A stretch of DNA of 41,929 bases from a virus (lineage: Duplodnaviria > Caudoviricetes). Below are positions 10,360 to 41,929 of this stretch, in pieces. The number at the start of each line of letters is the position of its first letter. Position 1 is the stretch's first letter. A model generated the notes under the pieces. That model had not been told where the DNA came from, made no database searches, and saw only the letters and a program-made list of their open reading frames with translations. The stretch is from IMG/VR virus record IMGVR_UViG_3300022183_000017, positions 1-41,929 of that record, one strand, 5' to 3'. The position numbers and the translations under genes are program-made.

Positions 10360-11688
10360 ATGGCACTTATTGCGGGTTGGGGAAGAGGAGCGTGGTCAGA
10401 AGGGGCTTGGGGTAGTCCTTTATCTGTATCGGTTACTGGGGTATCGGCGACAGGCCAAGTCGGCACCGTTACGGTAGCCGGGGCAAGCGATGTTCCCGCT
10501 ACGGGCGTAGCGGCTACGGGAAATGTTGGCACAGTCTCTATTACAACAGAAGCCAATGTGTCTGTTACGGGCCTCGCTGCTACAGGGCAAGTCGGATCTA
10601 TAACGGCGGATGCGAAAGCCAATGTTTCCGTTACCGGCGTAGCGGCTACAGGGCAAGTCGATTCCGTAACGGTGAACATAGGTTCGGGCACTGTTGTTAC
10701 GGGGCTAGAGGCTACCGGTAGTGTTGGCACGGTTTCTGCTACGGGAGTAGCCGATGTTTCTGTTACGGGGCTAGAGGCTACCGGTAGTGTTGGCACGGTT
10801 TCTGCTACGGGAGTAGCCGATGTTTCTGTTACCGGCGTCGCAGCTACGGGTAATGTTGGCACGGTTTCTCCTACGGGAGTAGCCAATGTGTCTGTTACGG
10901 GAGTAGCGGCTACTGGAGAAGTAGGAACAGCCGGTGTCCAGCAAAGCGTAAGCGTTTTTGTTACCGGAGTAGCGGCGACTGCCGCAGTTGGGTCCTCCAC
11001 CGTGGGGATAGGAATAACCGTCCCTGTTACGGGAGTAGCGGCGACTGCCGCAGTTGGTTCTGTAACGACAACGGGAGTGGCCAACATAGCCTTGACGGGC
11101 TTATCTGCTACGGGACAGGTTGGCGCAGCAACAATTGATGCGGCCTCTATTGTACCGGCTACGGGGCTGGAAGGCACCGGATCAGTAGGGTCTGTAGGAG
11201 TAACTGCCGACTCCGTCAATAGCGTCACGGGGCTAGCGGCTACGGCGTCTGTGGGTTCCGTCACTGCGGGTGTTTCCGTTGATGTCTCTGTAACAGGCGT
11301 ACCGGCTACGGGGTCAGTAGGGACGGCTACGGCGGCCATAGGTAAAGCGGTTCCTGTTACGGGGCTAGAGGCTACTGGAGCGGTTGGGTCTGTCACAACA
11401 ACGGCGAACGCGAATGTTCCTGTTACGGGTGTAGCCGGGACAGGAAGTGTTGGTGCTGCAACTGTTGATCTTAAAGTAGATGTGGACGTTAATGGTGTTA
11501 GCGCCACGGGGCAAGTTGGAACGATTTCTGACTTTAATTTGGGTTGCACTGTTTTCCCAATAGGTGTTGAAGCCACTGGAAGCACAACCCCCGTACTGAT
11601 CTGGGGTACTATTGTGCCAAACCAGAATCCGGAGTATACTTCTATTGCTCCATCACAAACACCGGGTTGGGATCAAATAGCAGCTTAG
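10360..11688 (+). CDS. V/T/G-rich repeat structural protein (~22-aa repeats)
   Basis: About 18 repeats of VTG(V/L)xATGxVGxV; N-terminal GWGRGAWSEGAWG; C-terminal W-containing tail. Confidence 0.85.
   Translation: MALIAGWGRGAWSEGAWGSPLSVSVTGVSATGQVGTVTVAGASDVPATGVAATGNVGTVSITTEANVSVTGLAATGQVGSITADAKANVSVTGVAATGQVDSVTVNIGSGTVVTGLEATGSVGTVSATGVADVSVTGLEATGSVGTVSATGVADVSVTGVAATGNVGTVSPTGVANVSVTGVAATGEVGTAGVQQSVSVFVTGVAATAAVGSSTVGIGITVPVTGVAATAAVGSVTTTGVANIALTGLSATGQVGAATIDAASIVPATGLEGTGSVGSVGVTADSVNSVTGLAATASVGSVTAGVSVDVSVTGVPATGSVGTATAAIGKAVPVTGLEATGAVGSVTTTANANVPVTGVAGTGSVGAATVDLKVDVDVNGVSATGQVGTISDFNLGCTVFPIGVEATGSTTPVLIWGTIVPNQNPEYTSIAPSQTPGWDQIAA
10695..10826 (+). repeat. Perfect 66-bp tandem duplication
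   Basis: 10695-10760 is identical to 10761-10826 (one 22-aa unit, VTGLEATGSVGTVSATGVADVS). Confidence 0.95.
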
Positions 11689-28500: not shown

Positions 28501-29600
28501 CCCCTGAAACTAAAGCTTTTCAAGCGGTGTTACTAAACGAAAGCCCAACAAAGGCCGTCACTACAGCTTTAAACAGCGGTAAGCCAAAAGCCGCTATGGA
28601 TGAGCTTTTGTCTCTAACTAGGACACCAAATGTTATAAATCCTGAAACAGGGGATGTGTTTAGCCCACAGCAGATAGCCGAAGGGCTGCGAATTGCCATT
28701 TTAGATCACGCAACTACGCTATCGGGAAATACTGGTCTTAAATTTGACCCAAAAACAATGTACGACGTGTTGTTTTCTACGGTAAAGGGATCTAGGCCGG
28801 GAGATAACATGAAGTTATCTACCTTTTTGCTAGATAACGAACTTATGACAAAAGAACATTTAAGCTCTATTCAAAAAGCTCTGAAAGAAATGATTAACGT
28901 GGAAGATGCGTTTGCTCGTGGTGATGTTGAAGATGTAATATTCGACAAACCAACGGGGGCCAAGATGTTTCAAACCAGAATGATTGGTGCAACTCTTGGT
29001 CAAGGTGCTCAAAATCAATTTAACAAGATACTCAAAAAATTTAACATTGATATTGGCGGCGGCATTGGCGGCGGCATGGTTGCCGCGCGAGAAGGTTCGC
29101 AACAAGCTCAAAATCTTTTATTTAGAATGCCAGAAGCGGCTCGTATCAGAGCCATGACCGAAATACTAAATAATCCTAGAGCTTTAGCTTTGATGTTGAT
29201 GGAGCAACGCACGTCAGCCCAGCAAAAAAGCGCCACAAACAAAATAAACGAGCTCCTTGTTGGCGGTGGCTTAAACTTTATATCCAGAAGAGCGCCATAT
29301 GCAGAACGGGCAATTTCTGGAGAAATTGAAGAATCCGGAGCAGGGACAACTGAACAACCACCGGTAGGTCCGGTAAGCTCTGTCGCACCAACAGCTATGC
29401 CTGCACCGCAACCAGTTCCGACGCCTGCGGCACAACCCACAACCGCTATGGCGTCGGCTGCTCCTGTCCAACCACAACCCCCTGCGCCTCCTCCCGTGGC
29501 TAGCGGGCCTGTGGACAGGAGCCGTTATGCCGCCCTGTTCCCCGGTGACATTGCATCTAGCATGATCCGTCAGCAGGGTATCGGGAGCCTCATGGGATGA
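25557..29600 (+). CDS. Large internal virion protein (1347 aa)
   Basis: Largest ORF, last of the internal-protein series; Gly-zipper TM-like segment, helical body, Pro-rich linker, terminal YAALFPGD...QGIGSLMG. Confidence 0.7.
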   Translation: MEDVTFATPAEDAVTVTAEGTPRIIIDPVPIPPSYNFTPEQFKEDLNTYGLPNMTAAIVDLQQGSAPEGAEYDYESLVDGTAPWLERYGKQLVPGYRPGKGLNDEQILSIFTNVQDFAGESVPEMAAFFEGVKRTAPRAGGMLTGAIAGGKTAAALTAPIPPAGPPALVLKGGAILAGTVFGAIMGDEAGDQLAENFFGEAAPLVPSLQPYYNAAETGTYGISMLATPSLLPRKAGATGALRFLDNFQRTAKGTASSSPVAQSLTQQIGKEVLSPKSLQKAIDAGKLGPRRGLLGKVTTDSTKGPLGARALASIDEGVTKFGEFGRTRFPTYATLETLAAGGAGTAAYVAEEMYPGDDLVRFGFEFAGAGAVPFSVQAGIKYAPQLLLGPIRVARKYLTGQAREEFDAKILNIAGSRIYDALMEAPNKPGFAELPELNDQQFELLIRALGDSLVDETGQPLRDFSKEAIKKSDVGPEFATEFGVISAQLAAKNNPFSRVVNRIEQELERAGNELSVSSKKGREAYMQGAKRVIEEARRDGSTEALSLAAALQENLFNVNITDNLNAAISNLNKAVKQVTKGDPTVDTDSMRLAERVYDIIQNQFKVSGERAQRLWNNVDGDVEIRQFFSRDGQEINKPNLLSIFDQDNMKGGLKFKSQAAEDRFWNSMGRGMKADYDAIRNYYKQDADAPELTDFFQERFDELKTRISDLSGPERLREIRDAAERTANAVFPQKIEPGSDHGNYMKALERLSENVSGPEVEFPVTTGRLVEMRSIALETARELRQNGKIQTAKNVDFFADSILDDLVNNPNFSNEAYNVARAYTKAQKDVFLRSFLGDLQQTTKRGDRRLSVGALIDKIKGAGSMPEYQRLVEIQEIGNFALRQNLEGAGDTVLTIHESLENVVRDAMKQVVDIKEVIDPVTNKPIRTMQVNPTKLANYKKQPNTQEVFRVFPQLATDLASAQKAQDMFDQLGRDLKALKPTPETKAFQAVLLNESPTKAVTTALNSGKPKAAMDELLSLTRTPNVINPETGDVFSPQQIAEGLRIAILDHATTLSGNTGLKFDPKTMYDVLFSTVKGSRPGDNMKLSTFLLDNELMTKEHLSSIQKALKEMINVEDAFARGDVEDVIFDKPTGAKMFQTRMIGATLGQGAQNQFNKILKKFNIDIGGGIGGGMVAAREGSQQAQNLLFRMPEAARIRAMTEILNNPRALALMLMEQRTSAQQKSATNKINELLVGGGLNFISRRAPYAERAISGEIEESGAGTTEQPPVGPVSSVAPTAMPAPQPVPTPAAQPTTAMASAAPVQPQPPAPPPVASGPVDRSRYAALFPGDIASSMIRQQGIGSLMG

Positions 29601-30070
29601 TCGACGACGTAATAGCCCTAATGCTTAAATCCGATCTGCACAGAGACTGGTACGTCCACGATCTGGAGCGGCTGGTACTGCCCGCCATCGAAGCAAAGAA
29701 GATGACGGTCGTGTACGAAGACAAGCTGACATCTAAGACGGCAATCTATCCGCGGCCCACGGGCCTATTCTCCCATGCTTTTTTGACGGAAGAAGCCTCA
29801 GAGGGTTATGAAAACGGCACACGTAAGTTGCAGCCAGAAGACTGGTTTTACGGACCGCGTCATGGTAAGCTCTATGTCATAGACTTCATAGCGCCGTATC
29901 AGAACGCTCTTAAAATAGGTAGATTTGCACAACAGGAACTGACGGGCCGTTACATTGAAGTCTATCCATACGATGGAGCGACGTTTTTGCGTCAGATGAA
30001 TGGTAAGAAAAAAGGGTACGCTACTGGCGTACAGGAAGACATCGTAGGACGGAGACATAGCTGTGTATAA
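29597..30070 (+). CDS. RTX toxin-activating lysine acyltransferase-like protein (HlyC family)
   Basis: LM.KS.LH catalytic motif, LVLPAI, P.G..S.AFL, L.PEDW..G, LYVIDFIAPY match HlyC/CyaC signature positions. Confidence 0.8.
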   Translation: MIDDVIALMLKSDLHRDWYVHDLERLVLPAIEAKKMTVVYEDKLTSKTAIYPRPTGLFSHAFLTEEASEGYENGTRKLQPEDWFYGPRHGKLYVIDFIAPYQNALKIGRFAQQELTGRYIEVYPYDGATFLRQMNGKKKGYATGVQEDIVGRRHSCV

Positions 30071-35156: not shown

Positions 35157-35407
35157 TGTTAAAAGCAGATGGTTTTAATGATGCGTTTATTGGTGTGGCA
35201 AGCAGAAGCGGCCAGCCGGATATAATCGCCTACGACTTTGATAGATGTGTCGCGGTCCTATGCGAACGGGACCGCATGGAGTTCGACGAAGCAGTGGAGT
35301 TTATGTACTTCAATGTCGTAGACGCTTGGGTTGGCGACGAAACCCCTATTTTTGTAAAGCTAATGGGCAGCATAGAGGATATTACCGATGAAGAACACGG
35401 CGCGTAA
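35156..35407 (+). CDS. Conserved small acidic phage protein
   Basis: ADGF.DAFIG...EA.EF..FNV..AWVG..TPIF. Confidence 0.75.
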   Translation: MLKADGFNDAFIGVASRSGQPDIIAYDFDRCVAVLCERDRMEFDEAVEFMYFNVVDAWVGDETPIFVKLMGSIEDITDEEHGA

Positions 35408-35807
35408 TGAAGAAGTTTACCACAAGCGTGTGGTAGAAAAACGTACCCTGCAATCTGTGGCAGATGAATATGGTATCACGCGCGAGCGTGTCAGGCAGAT
35501 TGTAGCAAAGATAGATAAGAAAGCTTTGTGGGAAGCAGCCCGCGCATCACGGCCCTCTCCGCCTAGAACAATGAAAGATATCTGGTGGAGCCGACGCACT
35601 TACAATTGCCTTTATAACGAAAACCTATTGCAATTTAGCCCTGACGATTTTGTAGAGCACATGAGCCACCACAGATTAATGTGCCGGATCCCAAACATGG
35701 GTAAAAAAACTGTAGAAGAAATTTGTAAAAGGCTGGAAGAAAATGGACAACAAGATATTTCGCATTTACGGTCCGCCCGGAACGGGGAAAACCACCGCGC
35801 TTCTTAA
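35388..35807 (+). CDS. Sigma70 region-4 HTH fused to RNA polymerase alpha-CTD-like domain
   Basis: TLQSVADEYGITRERVRQI (sigma R4) and SRRTYNCL...IPNMGKKTVEEI (alpha-CTD pattern SVR..NCL...PNLGKKS..EI). Confidence 0.75.
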   Translation: MKNTARNEEVYHKRVVEKRTLQSVADEYGITRERVRQIVAKIDKKALWEAARASRPSPPRTMKDIWWSRRTYNCLYNENLLQFSPDDFVEHMSHHRLMCRIPNMGKKTVEEICKRLEENGQQDISHLRSARNGENHRAS

Positions 35808-37544: not shown

Positions 37545-39436
37545 TGAGTTTGCAAATGACAATGTTTGGCCCCAAGAGTGAATGGGTGCCACCCGCAGAA
37601 CTGCCAGACATCTTTGATGCAAAGCAAATTGCTATAGATGTCGAGACCCGCGACCCAAACATCAAAGTTAACGGGCCGGGATGGCCCACTGGAGACGGAG
37701 AAGTTGTGGGCTACGCTATCGCGGTAGCAGATTGGGCCGGATACATACCTATTCGCCACCTTGGGGGCGGTAACTTAGATGAGCGCATTGTCAATAAGTG
37801 GCTCAAGAAAGTTTTTGAGTGCCCCGCCGACAAGATTATGCACAACGCTCAATACGACGCCGGTTGGATACGTCGTATGGGGTTCAAGATAAACGGGCGC
37901 ATCATCGACACCATGCTGGTAGCCGCTCTGTTAGATGAAAACCGATTCAGCTACAGTTTGAATGCGCTTTGCTACGATTTGCTGGGCAAAATAAAAACCG
38001 AAAAGACTTTGCAGGAAGCCGCCCGTGAGTTCGGGCTCGACCCTAAAGCTGAGATGTGGAAGATGCCTGCGATGTATGTCGGCCCGTATGCTCAGAATGA
38101 CGCAGAAATAACCCTAGATTTATGGAATTATTTATCTACACAATTAACCAAAGAAGACCTTTGGCATATCGCGGACCTTGAATTAAAGCTTTTGCCCTGC
38201 TTAATCGACATGACATGGCGCGGCGTCCGTATTGATCAAAACCGTGTCGAGCGCACTCGTAACATGCTTCTTAAAAGAGAAAAAGACATTGTTAAACAAA
38301 TAAAGTCTGTGGCCGGTATGGACGTAGAGCTTTGGGCGGCTGCTTCAATTTCTAAAGCTTTTGATAAGTTAAGCATTTCCTACCCAAAAACTGAAAAGGG
38401 CGCACCGTCCTTTACAAAGTCTTTCCTGACGGATCACCCGCATGAACTGGCACAACTAATCGTGCAGGCCCGAAACCTAAACAAGACTAGCGGAACCTTC
38501 ATCAACACAATTATGAAGCACTGCCGGACAGACGGACGCATTCACGGGCACATCAACCAGATTAGGTCAGACGACGGCGGCACGGTTTCGGGGCGCATTT
38601 CAATGTCCAACCCAAACCTACAGCAAATCCCCGCCCGCGACCCTGAACTGGGGCCGATGATCCGTAGCTTGTTCCTGCCAGAAGAGGGCGAGCAATGGGC
38701 GGCTATTGATTTCTCGCAGCAAGAACCGCGCATCTTGGTGCATTATGCACACTTATTTAATAAACACCGCGGCGGATCAATGAGGGGCGTAGAGGAGTTC
38801 GTAAATGCTTATAGACACGATCCTGATATGGATTTTCATACGATGGTTGCAGAAATGGCGTCGATCAATCGCAAACAGGCGAAGACGATTAACTTAGGCA
38901 TGATGTACGGGATGGGCGTTAACAAACTTTCTGAGCAGTTAGACATTGACGTAGAAGACGCCAAGAGTCTGGTTAAGCAGTACCATGATCGCGTCCCGTT
39001 TGTTAAGGGCTTGATGAACGGTGTTCAGGCACGTTTGAACGACAAAACAAGTGGAGGCTCTGTGCGGTCTTTATTGGGGCGTAAATGCCGCTTTGATCTG
39101 TGGGAGCCAGACACTTTTGCCATGAACAAAGCTCATCCGTACCAAAAAGCCATTGACGAGTACGGCGAGACAACGAGGCTTAAACGGGCATATACCTACA
39201 AAGCCCTAAACAGGCTTATTCAGGCGTCCGCCGCAGACATGACTAAGCAGTCTATGGTCAACATGTATGAGCAAGGATATGTTCCACTAATTCAAATCCA
39301 CGATGAAATAGCTATTTCGGTAAAAGACCGTGCGGCAGCAGAAAATATTGCCAACATCATGGAAAATGCTGTACCCTTGGAAATACCAAGTAAATGCGAC
39401 ATAGAGATCGGCCCAAGTTGGGGTGAAGCTAAGTAA
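37544..39436 (+). CDS. polA: Family A DNA polymerase with 3'-5' exonuclease, Leu762 type
   Basis: Exo DVET, HNAQYD, YAQND; GRISMSNPNLQQIP; motif A DFSQQEPR; motif B RKQAKTINLGMMYG; motif C IHDE. Confidence 0.96.
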   Translation: MSLQMTMFGPKSEWVPPAELPDIFDAKQIAIDVETRDPNIKVNGPGWPTGDGEVVGYAIAVADWAGYIPIRHLGGGNLDERIVNKWLKKVFECPADKIMHNAQYDAGWIRRMGFKINGRIIDTMLVAALLDENRFSYSLNALCYDLLGKIKTEKTLQEAAREFGLDPKAEMWKMPAMYVGPYAQNDAEITLDLWNYLSTQLTKEDLWHIADLELKLLPCLIDMTWRGVRIDQNRVERTRNMLLKREKDIVKQIKSVAGMDVELWAAASISKAFDKLSISYPKTEKGAPSFTKSFLTDHPHELAQLIVQARNLNKTSGTFINTIMKHCRTDGRIHGHINQIRSDDGGTVSGRISMSNPNLQQIPARDPELGPMIRSLFLPEEGEQWAAIDFSQQEPRILVHYAHLFNKHRGGSMRGVEEFVNAYRHDPDMDFHTMVAEMASINRKQAKTINLGMMYGMGVNKLSEQLDIDVEDAKSLVKQYHDRVPFVKGLMNGVQARLNDKTSGGSVRSLLGRKCRFDLWEPDTFAMNKAHPYQKAIDEYGETTRLKRAYTYKALNRLIQASAADMTKQSMVNMYEQGYVPLIQIHDEIAISVKDRAAAENIANIMENAVPLEIPSKCDIEIGPSWGEAK

Positions 39437-39493
39437 GCTTTTTCATGGTGTTCCTCCCTTAAACTGGCTCCGCTTCGGCGGGGCCTTTTTTTT
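39437..39493 (+). ncRNA. Candidate 3'-UTR small RNA with anti-SD seed
   Basis: GCTTTTTCATGGTGTTCCTCCCTT between the polA stop and the terminator; its reverse complement is SD + ATG AAA AAG C. Confidence 0.4.
39466..39493 (+). terminator. Intrinsic terminator of the replication operon
   Basis: GGCTCCGC-TTCG-GCGGGGCC with cUUCGg tetraloop and T8. Confidence 0.93.
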
Positions 39494-39494
39494 C

Positions 39495-39523
39495 TTGCGT
39501 ACATACCATATCTCCTATATATT
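39495..39523 (+). promoter_or_regulatory. Sigma70-like promoter for the RHH gene
   Basis: TTGCGT, 17 bp, TATATT. Confidence 0.6.
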
Positions 39524-39558
39524 CGCTTATAGAAACGCTATATATGGAGTTTTCCTTA

Positions 39559-39717
39559 ATGGATATAACTAAATGGAAGTCTGTCTTGGTGCCAATCGAG
39601 GTATATGAGCAGATTAGAACAATCGCAAAAGCCGAAGGCCGGACAATAAGCGGGCAGCTTCGTATTATGTGGGAAGTGTATAAAGAGACCCGCATAAAAG
39701 AACTCCAGAGCCGTTGA
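39559..39717 (+). CDS. 52-aa ribbon-helix-helix (Arc-like) regulator (not in ORF track)
   Basis: MDITKWKSVLVPIEVYEQIRTIAKAEGRTISGQLRIMWEVYKETRIKELQSR; strand-helix-A..EGRT(I)-helix pattern; GGAG SD at 39546-39549. Confidence 0.8.
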   Translation: MDITKWKSVLVPIEVYEQIRTIAKAEGRTISGQLRIMWEVYKETRIKELQSR

Positions 39718-39742
39718 CATATTTTTTTAGCTATGGTATGGG
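39714..39742 (+). promoter_or_regulatory. Sigma70-like promoter of the small-gene operon
   Basis: TTGACA (39714-39719), 17 bp, TATGGG with a TGn extension; weak -10 overlapping the TATGGGA motif. Confidence 0.55.
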
Positions 39743-39776
39743 ATAAGTAATGTTAACTCTTATACGGGAGACCAAT

Positions 39777-40217
39777 GTGGACTATACAAAGTTAATTGTT
39801 TCAACCATCGGGGACGTTTTAGGTGACGCCGAAGACCACGGCATGAAGCCGACGCCTGCTATGAAACGGCTCGCGGCCTACGGCCTTCTGGTTGAAGCTC
39901 AACTCGACGAAGCCAATACTCTGGGAGAGAAACCGCAAGAAGACATGCCGGAAAAGTTCCATTTCACCCCTGACGGCATTGAAATGAGTTTTGATTTCAC
40001 GCCCGAATGGGTAAAGCAGCCCAAAGTAAAACGCAAGAACGGCCGGAAAAATTGCAAAGAATGCAACACTAAGCTCACGGGTTTAAAGCGTTTGTTCTGT
40101 TCTAGGTTATGCCAAAAACGCAATTGGATTAAAGATAATCCTGAAAAAGTTCAGGCCAGCCACAACCGGTACGGTAAACGACAAAAGTCAAAACAAAAAC
40201 TCAGTTTGGTAAAATGA
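39777..40217 (+). CDS. Hypothetical protein with C-terminal C4 zinc finger
   Basis: GTG start behind GGGAG SD; CKEC...FCSRLC and basic tail. Confidence 0.7.
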   Translation: MDYTKLIVSTIGDVLGDAEDHGMKPTPAMKRLAAYGLLVEAQLDEANTLGEKPQEDMPEKFHFTPDGIEMSFDFTPEWVKQPKVKRKNGRKNCKECNTKLTGLKRLFCSRLCQKRNWIKDNPEKVQASHNRYGKRQKSKQKLSLVK

Positions 40218-40390
40218 AAACTTGCCCTGAGTGCGGCGGGGAGGGACAATGTGAGTATGAAGTCTCAGTGCCCTCCCCAATGTCTTGGCGGGGCGGGTGG
40301 CTTGAAGACCGGTTGTTAGAGTGCGAGATTTGTGGCGGATCAGGAGAGTTGGGAGATGATAAAGAACAGGGAATTGAATTATCCCCCTAA
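40214..40390 (+). CDS. 58-aa DnaJ-type zinc-finger protein (not in ORF track)
   Basis: MKTCPECGGEG...ECEICGGSGE: two CxxCxGxG motifs; ATGA overlap with the upstream gene. Confidence 0.8.
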   Translation: MKTCPECGGEGQCEYEVSVPSPMSWRGGWLEDRLLECEICGGSGELGDDKEQGIELSP

Positions 40391-40574
40391 ACCTTTTGGT
40401 GACGCCGGTAAAATACAAAAGCTTCTAGATAACAACCAGTGCCCGCGCTGCCGAACAAATTTACCGCCCGTCGAAGTGCACGGTCATGTGCAATGCGCCG
40501 TATGCAAACTTTATATCAACGAATGCTGTCAGGGAGAGCAATGTGATATGCCCGAAGTGTCAGGGGAAAAGTAA
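40356..40574 (+). CDS. Small zinc-ribbon protein
   Basis: CPRC...VHGHVQCAVC...ECCQGE; start ATG 40356 with AGGAG SD. Confidence 0.75.
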   Translation: MIKNRELNYPPKPFGDAGKIQKLLDNNQCPRCRTNLPPVEVHGHVQCAVCKLYINECCQGEQCDMPEVSGEK

Positions 40575-40821
40575 AGTATATAATAGCCGACCTAAGAATG
40601 ATACTATTCGTCGGAATAGAAAGTGCCTAGAGTGTGGACATAAATACACGACCCTAGAACTACTGGAACACCCCGTAGAAAAAATAGTGCGGCCTACGAA
40701 GCCAAAATTAACACTGGTTAAAAAGAAGAAACCGAAGCATAAACCGCGGTTCACCGACCTTGACTTTGATAATATGTCAGACGAAGAACTAGAAGCGGCA
40801 ATATTCGACGGGAGGTTTTAA
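40543..40821 (+). CDS. NrdR-like zinc-ribbon protein lacking the ATP cone
   Basis: CPKC...KV.NSR....IRR.RKC.ECG.KYTT.E matches the NrdR N-terminal domain pattern; GTG start with GGGAG SD. Confidence 0.75.
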   Translation: MICPKCQGKSKVYNSRPKNDTIRRNRKCLECGHKYTTLELLEHPVEKIVRPTKPKLTLVKKKKPKHKPRFTDLDFDNMSDEELEAAIFDGRF

Positions 40822-40938
40822 TGCGAAAAGTTAGGAACCCTGTCGCTAAACAAATAAAGCGTTTTAAAAACCAGATAGTCCGACCCAAAAAAGGGAAAGG
40901 ATCGTATAAAAGGAGAGGGCGGGTCTACCGCCCTTTTT
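40821..40938 (+). CDS. arfA: ArfA-like alternative ribosome-rescue factor, predicted non-stop ~39-aa form (first in-frame stop only at 41138)
   Basis: GGGAGG SD; NPVAKQI..FK.QIV.PKKGKGSYKR versus E. coli ArfA N...FRQRV..KKGKGSY.R; terminator inside the frame. Confidence 0.7.
40916..40938 (+). terminator. Intrinsic terminator within the arfA-like frame (possibly bidirectional)
   Basis: AGGGCGG-GTCTA-CCGCCCT-TTTT; the loop contains the stop codon of the convergent nuclease gene. Confidence 0.7.
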
Positions 40939-41326
40939 CTATGCACTTGTCCCACGACCGCACTTCTAAATCATCTTTATCAAACTTCTGGGGCAGGAAC
41001 CGCTTGGTTAGCTGCCCCTTTAAACATTCAACCGGCTTAAATAAAACCCGCTCGCGATCCAAAGCCACTAGCGCGACGACATCACAGTTTTTCTTGGTCA
41101 AAGGGCGTTTTTTACCGCCATACCCCAAAGAAAAATGATACCCCGACCCGTTTTTATTTCGCTTAAACTGGCTTGCCTTAACTTGGACGCGGATTAAACC
41201 GTCCTCTGTCTGTGCTATGATGTCCGTAGTGCCCATATGTACTATCTCGCAAGATACACCCAGTTTCATCAGGCGCACCATACAAATGAGCTCACCAATC
41301 TTTCCAGAATTGACCGCGTCGTGCAT
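40925..41326 (-). CDS. PD-(D/E)XK endonuclease
   Basis: G.IGE (motif I), TDII (motif II), RVQVK (motif III), CDVVALV. Confidence 0.8.
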   Translation of the reverse strand: MHDAVNSGKIGELICMVRLMKLGVSCEIVHMGTTDIIAQTEDGLIRVQVKASQFKRNKNGSGYHFSLGYGGKKRPLTKKNCDVVALVALDRERVLFKPVECLKGQLTKRFLPQKFDKDDLEVRSWDKCIEKGR

Positions 41327-41383
41327 ATCTTAACTTTACACATAACGATTTCGAAAAAAACATCTTTTATGCCTATTTATATG

Positions 41384-41411
41384 TTGCAATTCCCATACAA
41401 TCGTATATAAA
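41384..41411 (+). promoter_or_regulatory. Sigma70-like promoter of the candidate sRNA
   Basis: TTGCAA (41384-41389), 16 bp, TATAAA (41406-41411); predicted start near 41418. Confidence 0.55.
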
Positions 41412-41417
41412 GGTCTT

Positions 41418-41489
41418 TGTAGAGCCCCCAAGCTTTACATTCCCGTAGTGAAGCCCTCAGAGTGATGCCGCTCTGGGGGTTTTCTTTTT
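41418..41489 (+). ncRNA. Candidate antisense small RNA (~70 nt)
   Basis: Hairpin TGTAGAGC-CCCCAA-GCTTTACA, linker TTCCCGTAGTG, 14-bp terminator stem (41451-41482) plus T tract; no ORF; linker complementary to the downstream RBS. Confidence 0.7.
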
Positions 41490-41493
41490 CCTG

Positions 41494-41523
41494 TTGACAA
41501 TATGTTGTCATTTATATTATATG
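41494..41523 (+). promoter_or_regulatory. Sigma70-like promoter of the next early operon
   Basis: TTGACA (41494-41499) followed by AT-rich TATATTATATG offering several -10 candidates. Confidence 0.65.
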
Positions 41524-41555
41524 GGATAAATCTTATATCACTACGGGAGATAAAA

Positions 41556-41882
41556 ATGATTGGTGACGATAAAATTGACTTTGTAAACGGGCTGTCTAAC
41601 GAAGATGTCGCAGATGTAATCAGTATCCTCGCTTCACGGCTCTGTGTCTGGGAACAAAATGACGGTGTTAGCTGCTTAACAGACGTGGAAAACGCGACCC
41701 TGAACGGGGCTTTTGTGCAAATCAACCCAAAGCACCGGCATAAGCGTTCTAAAAATCCAAAAGAACTTACGCGGGAGCAACTTTACTCCGTCCTAATCGG
41801 TAAATTTGACGATGATGTCTGGCACTGTAGCCGAACCGAAGACGGGCTCGTCGAAATCCAGTTCTATGTGAAGGAGGACTGA
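41556..41882 (+). CDS. Hypothetical early protein
   Basis: ATG 41556 behind GGGAG SD; acidic 108-aa protein. Confidence 0.7.
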   Translation: MIGDDKIDFVNGLSNEDVADVISILASRLCVWEQNDGVSCLTDVENATLNGAFVQINPKHRHKRSKNPKELTREQLYSVLIGKFDDDVWHCSRTEDGLVEIQFYVKED

Positions 41883-41883
41883 T

Positions 41884-41929
41884 ATGCTTGTTATTACACG
41901 GGAAGAAGCGCAAGCGCGAGGGCTAAAAC
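41884..41929 (+). CDS. 5' part of a CDS truncated by the window end (MLVITREEAQARGLK...)
   Basis: AGGAGG SD; the I.R.EA...GLK start is seen in phage HNH-associated DNA-binding modules; too short to assign. Confidence 0.55.
   Translation, partial: MLVITREEAQARGLK

Follow-up and report, generated by a model that had tools for sequence, protein, structure and literature searches.

The sequence analysed here, called the window throughout, is a whole virus record of 41,929 nucleotides from a marine phage (41.9 kb, 72% complete, 47.8% G+C). Its DNA polymerase is closest to those of DSL-LC04, 023Pt_psg01, HTVC023P and HTVC027P (48–55% identity), and on this basis we assign the window to the HTVC023P-type phages. 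No tRNA or tmRNA genes were found in the window (a 72% complete record), and no Rfam family reached its cut-off in 39400–41929. The locus of interest contains the following features:

40486..40821, + strand: upstream neighbour, a gene for an NrdR-like zinc ribbon (PF22811, E 1e-11), whose TAA overlaps the ATG of the ArfA-like gene
40810..40815, + strand: Shine-Dalgarno-like GGGAGG, 5 nt ahead of the ATG and within the last codons of the upstream gene
40821..40937, + strand: coding region of the short ArfA-like peptide, which reaches the T-run after 39 codons (the product predicted from a non-stop message), recognised by family matches and an excess of third-position changes
40887..40907, + strand: KKGKGSY motif, followed by 10 codons, 5 of them basic, before the end of the T-run
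40912..40940, + strand: intrinsic-terminator-like hairpin and T-run within the reading frame (core 40916–40934), assessed by fold z, covariation and a recoding test
40941..41138, + strand: nominal read-through tail to a TGA, antisense to the nuclease gene and unconserved
40925..41326, − strand: convergent neighbour outside the cassette, a gene for a PD-(D/E)XK-like nuclease, whose TAG stop falls in the hairpin loop

The zinc-ribbon gene and the ArfA-like gene are likely to share one transcript. The PD-(D/E)XK match of the nuclease gene is weak (E 0.008, under the cut-off), and the gene matches phrog_5018 with E 3e-12. Elsewhere, the window carries a GroES-like gene (1336–1788), an HlyC-like acyltransferase domain (29597–30070) and one protein with matches to sigma-70 region 4 and an RNA polymerase alpha-CTD-like domain (35388–35807). 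The intergenic region 41405–41490 holds a strong hairpin (41450–41483, z −4.2). The complement of the word TACGGGA is found at 41441–41447, and TACGGGA itself precedes a start at 39763–39769 and at 41542–41548. This word occurs 21 times in the window, with about 4 copies expected, and 7 of them cluster within ORF 10360–11688 (10515–11115), where they probably represent a repeated peptide motif.

The translated frame starts at the ATG at 40821 and reads MRKVRNPVAKQIKRFKNQIVRPKKGKGSYKRRGRVYRPF. Its first in-frame stop is the TGA at 41136–41138, which gives a nominal ORF of 105 aa. The first-pass annotation of this DNA had described a strong SD (GGGAGG) with an ATG, a G+C-rich hairpin and T-run at 40916–40938 ahead of any stop, and a remainder of the 105-aa ORF lying antisense to the convergent nuclease gene; all three descriptions hold, as both start signals are present, the hairpin folds with z = −4.5 and the nuclease gene occupies 40925–41326 on the − strand. 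Among 110 non-independent pairs of relatives, codon positions 1, 2 and 3 carry 306, 87 and 592 differences, respectively, and an SD-like word lies ahead of the start codon in 33 of the 34 terminator-type phage sites defined below. The one site without it, L112, is an incomplete or disrupted copy, and it was retained in the pairwise codon counts. On these codon patterns, the ArfA-like frame is a translated gene under purifying selection. The read-through products contain no hydrophobic-tail degron pattern. An AlphaFold model of the lone peptide was weak (pLDDT 70, pTM 0.25, with a helix at 7–14), and a Foldseek search with this model gave no match.

To place the peptide in a family, motif patterns and profiles were needed, because direct homology searches with the short peptide (tblastn of phages and a word-indexed protein search) returned no matches. 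The search against the Pfam ArfA HMM (PF03889) that the first-pass annotation had suggested gave a divided answer: the single peptide reaches 24.5 bits (E 1.8e-5), below the cut-off of 25.5, but 15 of 15 phage relatives match, the best with E 5e-11. A profile built from these 15 phage peptides alone matches 6 of 177,635 PDB sequences, all of them ArfA (E ~1e-8), with the match covering only residues from about 20 onwards, and a wider profile collected 1,160 clusters at E ≤ 0.001. Membership of the peptide in the ArfA family, as a short type, is thus supported by profile similarity.

The residues known to matter in ArfA were compared using the numbering of locus L395 and PMC8012679. In the window peptide KKGKGSY is followed by 10 more residues, 5 of which are basic, and this basic tail passes the equivalent of E. 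coli residue 40; E. coli ArfA truncated one residue past the Tyr is inactive (PMC8012679). The equivalent of F25, which is named as an RF2 contact (PMC8012679), is F15 here, and an F or Y occupies this position in 28 of 33 terminator-type sites, while the beta-strand 27–30 of ArfA aligns with N17–V20; both correspondences come from alignment only. Ala18 is needed for RF2 activation, and it matters because the A18T change prevents the N-terminus from becoming ordered (PMC8012679). This Ala is found in 56/56 gammaproteobacterial sites among the matches listed. In the window peptide Lys10 is in register with Ala18 and the Ala sits one place earlier, about 8 N-terminal residues are absent, with only 5 preceding the conserved Asn, and two residues are deleted ahead of the Phe, a deletion that is identical in other intact members. 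The KH motif, whose importance is described as untested in PMC8012679, is absent from the window peptide and present in four chromosomal relatives (L547, L549, L551 and L554). The "minimal ArfA" of the first-pass annotation therefore stands as regards kinship, on the phage-only profile and its PDB matches, but the peptide is not an ArfA of the strict E. coli type, since it fails on Ala18 and the KH motif. As the short type lacks most of the N-terminus, the loss of Ala18 may be harmless, or it may mean that there is no activation.

A scan of bacterial genomes gave at least 120 loci with related genes. At least 48 SAR11-like sites (Pelagibacteraceae loci, within L370–L489) have the same short N-terminus with the shifted Ala; their stop lies 4–16 codons past the motif, and a terminator was seen in 0/48 among the matches listed. 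These SAR11 copies often end head-on against a convergent gene. In the class of G004 (a Boseongicola assembly, and hence Alphaproteobacteria) 14 of 401 genomes match, at 15 places. A hairpin and T-run precede the stop in L547, L551, L554 and L558, and more weakly in L549, as seen by eye from the folds, and the other ten have plain stops; the hairpins of L547, L551, L554 and L558 are unrelated in sequence to the phage hairpin. All 5 alphaproteobacterial genomes that were checked for SmpB encode it, those of L547, L551 and L554 among them. Table 1 of PMC11633108 gives arfA in 0/2,376 Alphaproteobacteria. In L547, L551 and L554 the short ArfA-like gene has an MscS-family gene ahead of it and a DUF2336 gene pointing towards it; in E. 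coli there is a link between arfA and mscL (PMC10070815).

Among the gammaproteobacterial ArfA sites listed, 17 of 56 end in Ala-Ala-stop (L384, L386, L387, L390, L411, L422, L426, L439, L445, L453 and others). The end of the tmRNA tag resembles such an Ala-Ala terminus, and this ending is possibly a built-in degron, which would be a third way to keep ArfA low.

Across the short type, the conserved Asn is retained along with the beta-strand pattern and the aromatic residue equivalent to F25, whereas the Ala18 position is mostly taken by Lys or Arg. The latter feature bears on a rather unlikely alternative, in which the product would be a conditional ribosome blocker or storage factor: it would occupy the empty mRNA channel, and perhaps dock closed RF2 as ArfA(A18T) does, with no release. 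The Lys/Arg in most short-type sites agrees with such a role, as do the near absence of the N-terminal residues that become ordered with open RF2, the PDB match that begins only at about residue 20, and the presence of ArfA-like segments also within longer basic phage proteins. Against it, the beta-strand pattern and the aromatic residue that contacts RF2 persist, chromosomes carry the short form as well (in SAR11 it looks constitutive), and a non-stop layout suits a back-up rescue factor, which would be expected precisely when ribosomes stall. The first-pass annotation had taken the shorter N-terminus as a sign of a possible phage blocker; the same form occurs on the chromosomes of SAR11 and other Alphaproteobacteria and is thus no special sign of a phage-made blocker, although the lost Ala18 equivalent keeps such a role in play.

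The hairpin that interrupts the frame has a 7-bp stem and a 5-nt loop (40916–40934), can be extended to 40912–40938, and is followed by TTTTTCT. On the + strand it folds with z = −4.5 relative to dinucleotide shuffles, none of which (0/200) was equally good, and 0/300 synonymous recodings of the 12 hairpin codons fold as well. A simple terminator scan listed the hairpin on the − strand only, which probably reflects that it counts the Ts as part of the stem; our own rule calls the + strand. T-runs are present on both strands, with an A-rich 5' side, and the hairpin is likely to act as a terminator on the − strand too, that is, bidirectionally. Across 14 distinct hairpins with a 5-nt loop all 126 of 126 stem cells are paired, with two-sided changes in 3 pairs, and 0/500 shuffles gave a covariation score as high, although relatedness inflates this test; slid controls scored far lower. 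An RNase III site was also considered and judged unlikely, as the stem has just 7–11 bp.

If the hairpin works as a terminator, the host RNA polymerase would stop near 40938–40941 and produce a non-stop message of about 39 codons. We looked for transcript ends in 8 RNA runs, available as contigs only, which can show neither ends nor strand, and none of these contigs ends at the stem. Twelve runs include parts of the region, and 4 of the 8 gave no cover of the gene. An unstranded contig of depth 4 (40574–41110) crosses the hairpin, and we count it against the proposed switch; of the further contigs, one stops within the gene and another belongs to a relative whose sequence differs at this spot. 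In some proteobacteria, termination within a reading frame can be suppressed by the ribosome that follows the polymerase, and this too counts against the switch.

Pattern scans of viral and metagenome contigs yielded 206 distinct motif sites, of which 53 form a close type, with KR[KR][GDE]R after the motif, selected by the first arm only. A called terminator lies wholly before the stop in 34 of these 53 sites, one of which is a 100% copy of the window, and in none does the stop come ahead of the terminator. The remaining 19 comprise 15 low-G+C sites with plain stops, L490 and L503, which have the stem but a broken T-run, L501, whose longer loop was missed by the rule, and L502, with an early stop. 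None of 22 distinct hairpin regions has gained back a stop before the terminator. The loops themselves show only weak stop avoidance (P ~0.05, with rows that are not independent), which counts against the switch. The read-through tails of the relatives, of 14–76 residues, are unconserved: many pairs with >0.9 identity upstream fall to ~0.2–0.3 directly beyond the T-run, and the near-identical genes L493 and L509 end at 76 or 27 aa. The same layout is built from unrelated hairpins in the phage loci L085, L501 and L688.

A further sample of 120 loci, with 81 distinct peptides, was drawn blind to the 3' side; here just 3/81 have a terminator ahead of the stop, one of them doubtful, and 78/81 have none. 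On this sequence survey, the predicted non-stop switch is a minority design among phage ArfA-like genes. Two expectations of the first-pass annotation were thereby settled in part. The terminator before the stop, for which it had proposed to check homologues, is conserved in the close type (34/53, with 0 stop-first) but not in the wider sample, and the normal stop right after KKGKGSY, which it had held to speak against the idea, is found in most distant phage homologues, such as HTVC027P gp30, but never ahead of a called terminator in the close ones. Counted against the favoured reading are the plain stops in most phage homologues, the broken T-runs of L490 and L503, the Lys at Ala18 together with the missing N-terminal residues, KH motif and two residues ahead of the Phe, the single-peptide score below the Pfam cut-off, and the fact that the hairpin would serve the convergent gene equally well as a terminator. 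As a baseline, our terminator rule was applied to 66 sequences (486 kb) of these phages, and gave 98 calls, with some hairpins counted twice; 13 are at ArfA-like genes and 56 are unassigned. With respect to ORFs of at least 100 aa, 23 calls follow the stop, 2 lie inside the sense ORF and 4 inside antisense genes.

ArfA-like peptides also occur in other phage settings. Segments of this kind are embedded in longer basic phage proteins (L206, L220, L221, L252, L255, L264, L271, L304, L627, L636, L639 and L650), in which xGG linkers recur and a C-terminal block is conserved, and in L255 the Pfam ArfA match is over the cut-off. In several of their higher-G+C copies the motif is directly followed by a hairpin that folds better than synonymous recodings, and such hairpins are perhaps a leaky version of the switch, or the proteins a cleaved polyprotein. 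In a separate group of large-genome phages (L081, L092, L098, L100, L116, L123 and others), several of whose contigs exceed 80 kb, the ArfA-like peptide differs at its N-terminus and its gene closes with a plain stop.

The zinc-ribbon gene was found in 24 loci, and 22 junctions between it and the nuclease gene were scored, after exclusion of L699, which is cut short, and L712, a weak match. Both the ArfA-like gene and the terminator are missing from 21 of the 22, the remaining one being the copy of the window; at these 21 empty junctions the flanking genes meet directly in 13 cases, another insert is present in 6, and no nuclease end was located in 2. Because 21 of 22 junctions lack both elements, the gene and terminator arrive together, as a cassette of ~120 bases. 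The zinc-ribbon/nuclease junction is an insertion hot spot, where relatives carry other inserts, of ~110 and ~407 bases (L705, L700, L706, L708–L710). We also considered the hairpin as a property of the nuclease gene or of the junction itself, and rejected this, since the junctions of 21 relatives have no terminator.

The main rival to a switch is a terminator shared by the two genes, because T-runs occur on both strands and the convergent ORF ends at the hairpin. The peptide would then be a working ArfA-like rescue factor, and the hairpin would mainly insulate against head-on transcription; the stop would have been lost once, harmlessly, and through read-through or self-rescue the gene would be expressed more or less constitutively, without a true switch by tmRNA. 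We give this a minor but real chance. The convergent ORF ends within the hairpin in 16 of 34 sites and just beyond it in 10 (26/34 together), plain stops are found in most phage homologues and in 48/48 SAR11-type homologues among the matches listed, and the sense T-run has been lost in L490 and L503. A peptide tree over 34 columns shows 4–6 label changes in bootstraps, and is compatible with a single origin of the terminator type, as a stop lost once would require. However, 21 relatives manage the same junction without a terminator, 13 of them with genes that meet directly, no stop was regained before the terminator in the 22 distinct hairpin regions, and unrelated hairpins recur at the same place in both phages and chromosomes.

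Two further explanations concern the message or the gene as such. The non-stop ORF could act through its message rather than its peptide, by drawing tmRNA-coupled decay onto the upstream small-gene transcript or by soaking up tmRNA. The ATG overlaps the upstream stop and the ArfA-like gene is the last cistron, which would suit this, and in E. coli the gene that precedes arfA (zntR) is reported to be repressed in a tmRNA-dependent manner (PMC10107115), but any ORF would serve such a purpose, yet the ArfA motif and the RF2-contact positions are under purifying selection, and we consider it quite improbable. That the gene is a decaying or functionless passenger is very improbable indeed: its absence at 21/22 related junctions, the two-residue deletion and the score below the Pfam cut-off could be read in this way, but the SD, the motif and the covarying stem are kept across divergent phages, synonymous changes are in excess, and the two-residue deletion recurs in other intact members.

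Three known systems resemble the locus. In ArfA itself (YhdL; PF03889; PDB 5MGP, 5MDV, 5U4I, 5H5U and 7OJ0), N14, F25, the beta-strand pattern and KKGKGSY with its basic tail align with the window peptide, and, as here, the ORF contains a stem-loop ahead of its stop and shows little conservation at the C-terminus (PMC8012679; PMC3989581). ArfA-type rescue systems are matched to their own species (PMC8012679). The window peptide differs in having ~8 fewer N-terminal residues, Lys in place of Ala18, no KH motif and the two-residue deletion, and in being phage-borne, and its hairpin is of the short terminator type, in contrast to the longer, RNase III-type stem of ArfA. BrfA (YqkK) of Bacillus subtilis has the same layout, with a Rho-independent terminator in the coding region that gives a non-stop mRNA under tmRNA control (PMC6881298), but it has a different N-terminus and is carried on a Firmicute chromosome; no BrfA chain was among the PDB matches up to E 10, and no sequence kinship was found. 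Pelagiphage HTVC027P, of the same phage group (DNA polymerase 48% identical), encodes in gp30 the same short NP-x-A type of peptide, which is annotated as ArfA (a domain annotation only) and is reported to be highly transcribed early and late (PMC12753301). Unlike the window gene, gp30 lacks a hairpin, ends at an ordinary stop 7 codons past the motif, and carries an additional N-terminal segment. On the chromosomes of SAR11 and other Alphaproteobacteria, the ArfA-like genes share the short N-terminus, and several of them keep the KH motif. A search for publications on a phage ArfA under non-stop control gave only the HTVC027P annotation, in a literature whose subscription papers were mostly out of reach, and ArfA is not mentioned in the available part of PMC9599517. 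Annotation of a phage ArfA and non-stop control of arfA and brfA are thus already known; what we did not find before is their combination in a phage. As the parts are known separately, the surprise is limited.

With moderate confidence, we favour the interpretation that the locus is a ~120-base cassette encoding an ArfA-family peptide with an in-frame terminator, whose product would be tagged and destroyed unless the host tmRNA is overloaded. Regulation like that of arfA and brfA is predicted, on the grounds that the terminator-before-stop layout is shared by close relatives, shows covariation and moves together with the gene. By analogy with arfA and brfA, tmRNA–SmpB would tag the product of the non-stop message for proteolysis, and once stalled ribosomes exceed the tmRNA capacity, untagged peptide would accumulate. 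Candidates for the cause of such an overload during infection are decay of host RNA, toxins and defence nucleases. Its basic C-terminus would then enter the empty mRNA channel, the Phe and the beta-strand segment would recruit host RF2, and this would free ribosomes for phage protein synthesis. A broader proposal, which is tentative and on the doubtful side, is that the cassette is a portable sensor of stalled ribosomes, traded by phages, inserted at operon ends and used in counter-defence once infection or an RNA-cleaving defence swamps the host tmRNA, and that the short ArfA subfamily also serves RF2-dependent rescue in SAR11 and other Alphaproteobacteria, with RF2 activated in the absence of Ala18 or the N-terminal loop; the counter-defence purpose itself is a guess.

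ArfA has been described as limited to beta- and gammaproteobacteria (PMC6881298), and, if the interpretation is correct, the family would extend beyond these classes. The short type also bears on whether RF2 activation is possible without Ala18. For the phage, the cassette would mean that it senses translational overload through the tmRNA circuit of its host, and supplies ribosome rescue on demand.
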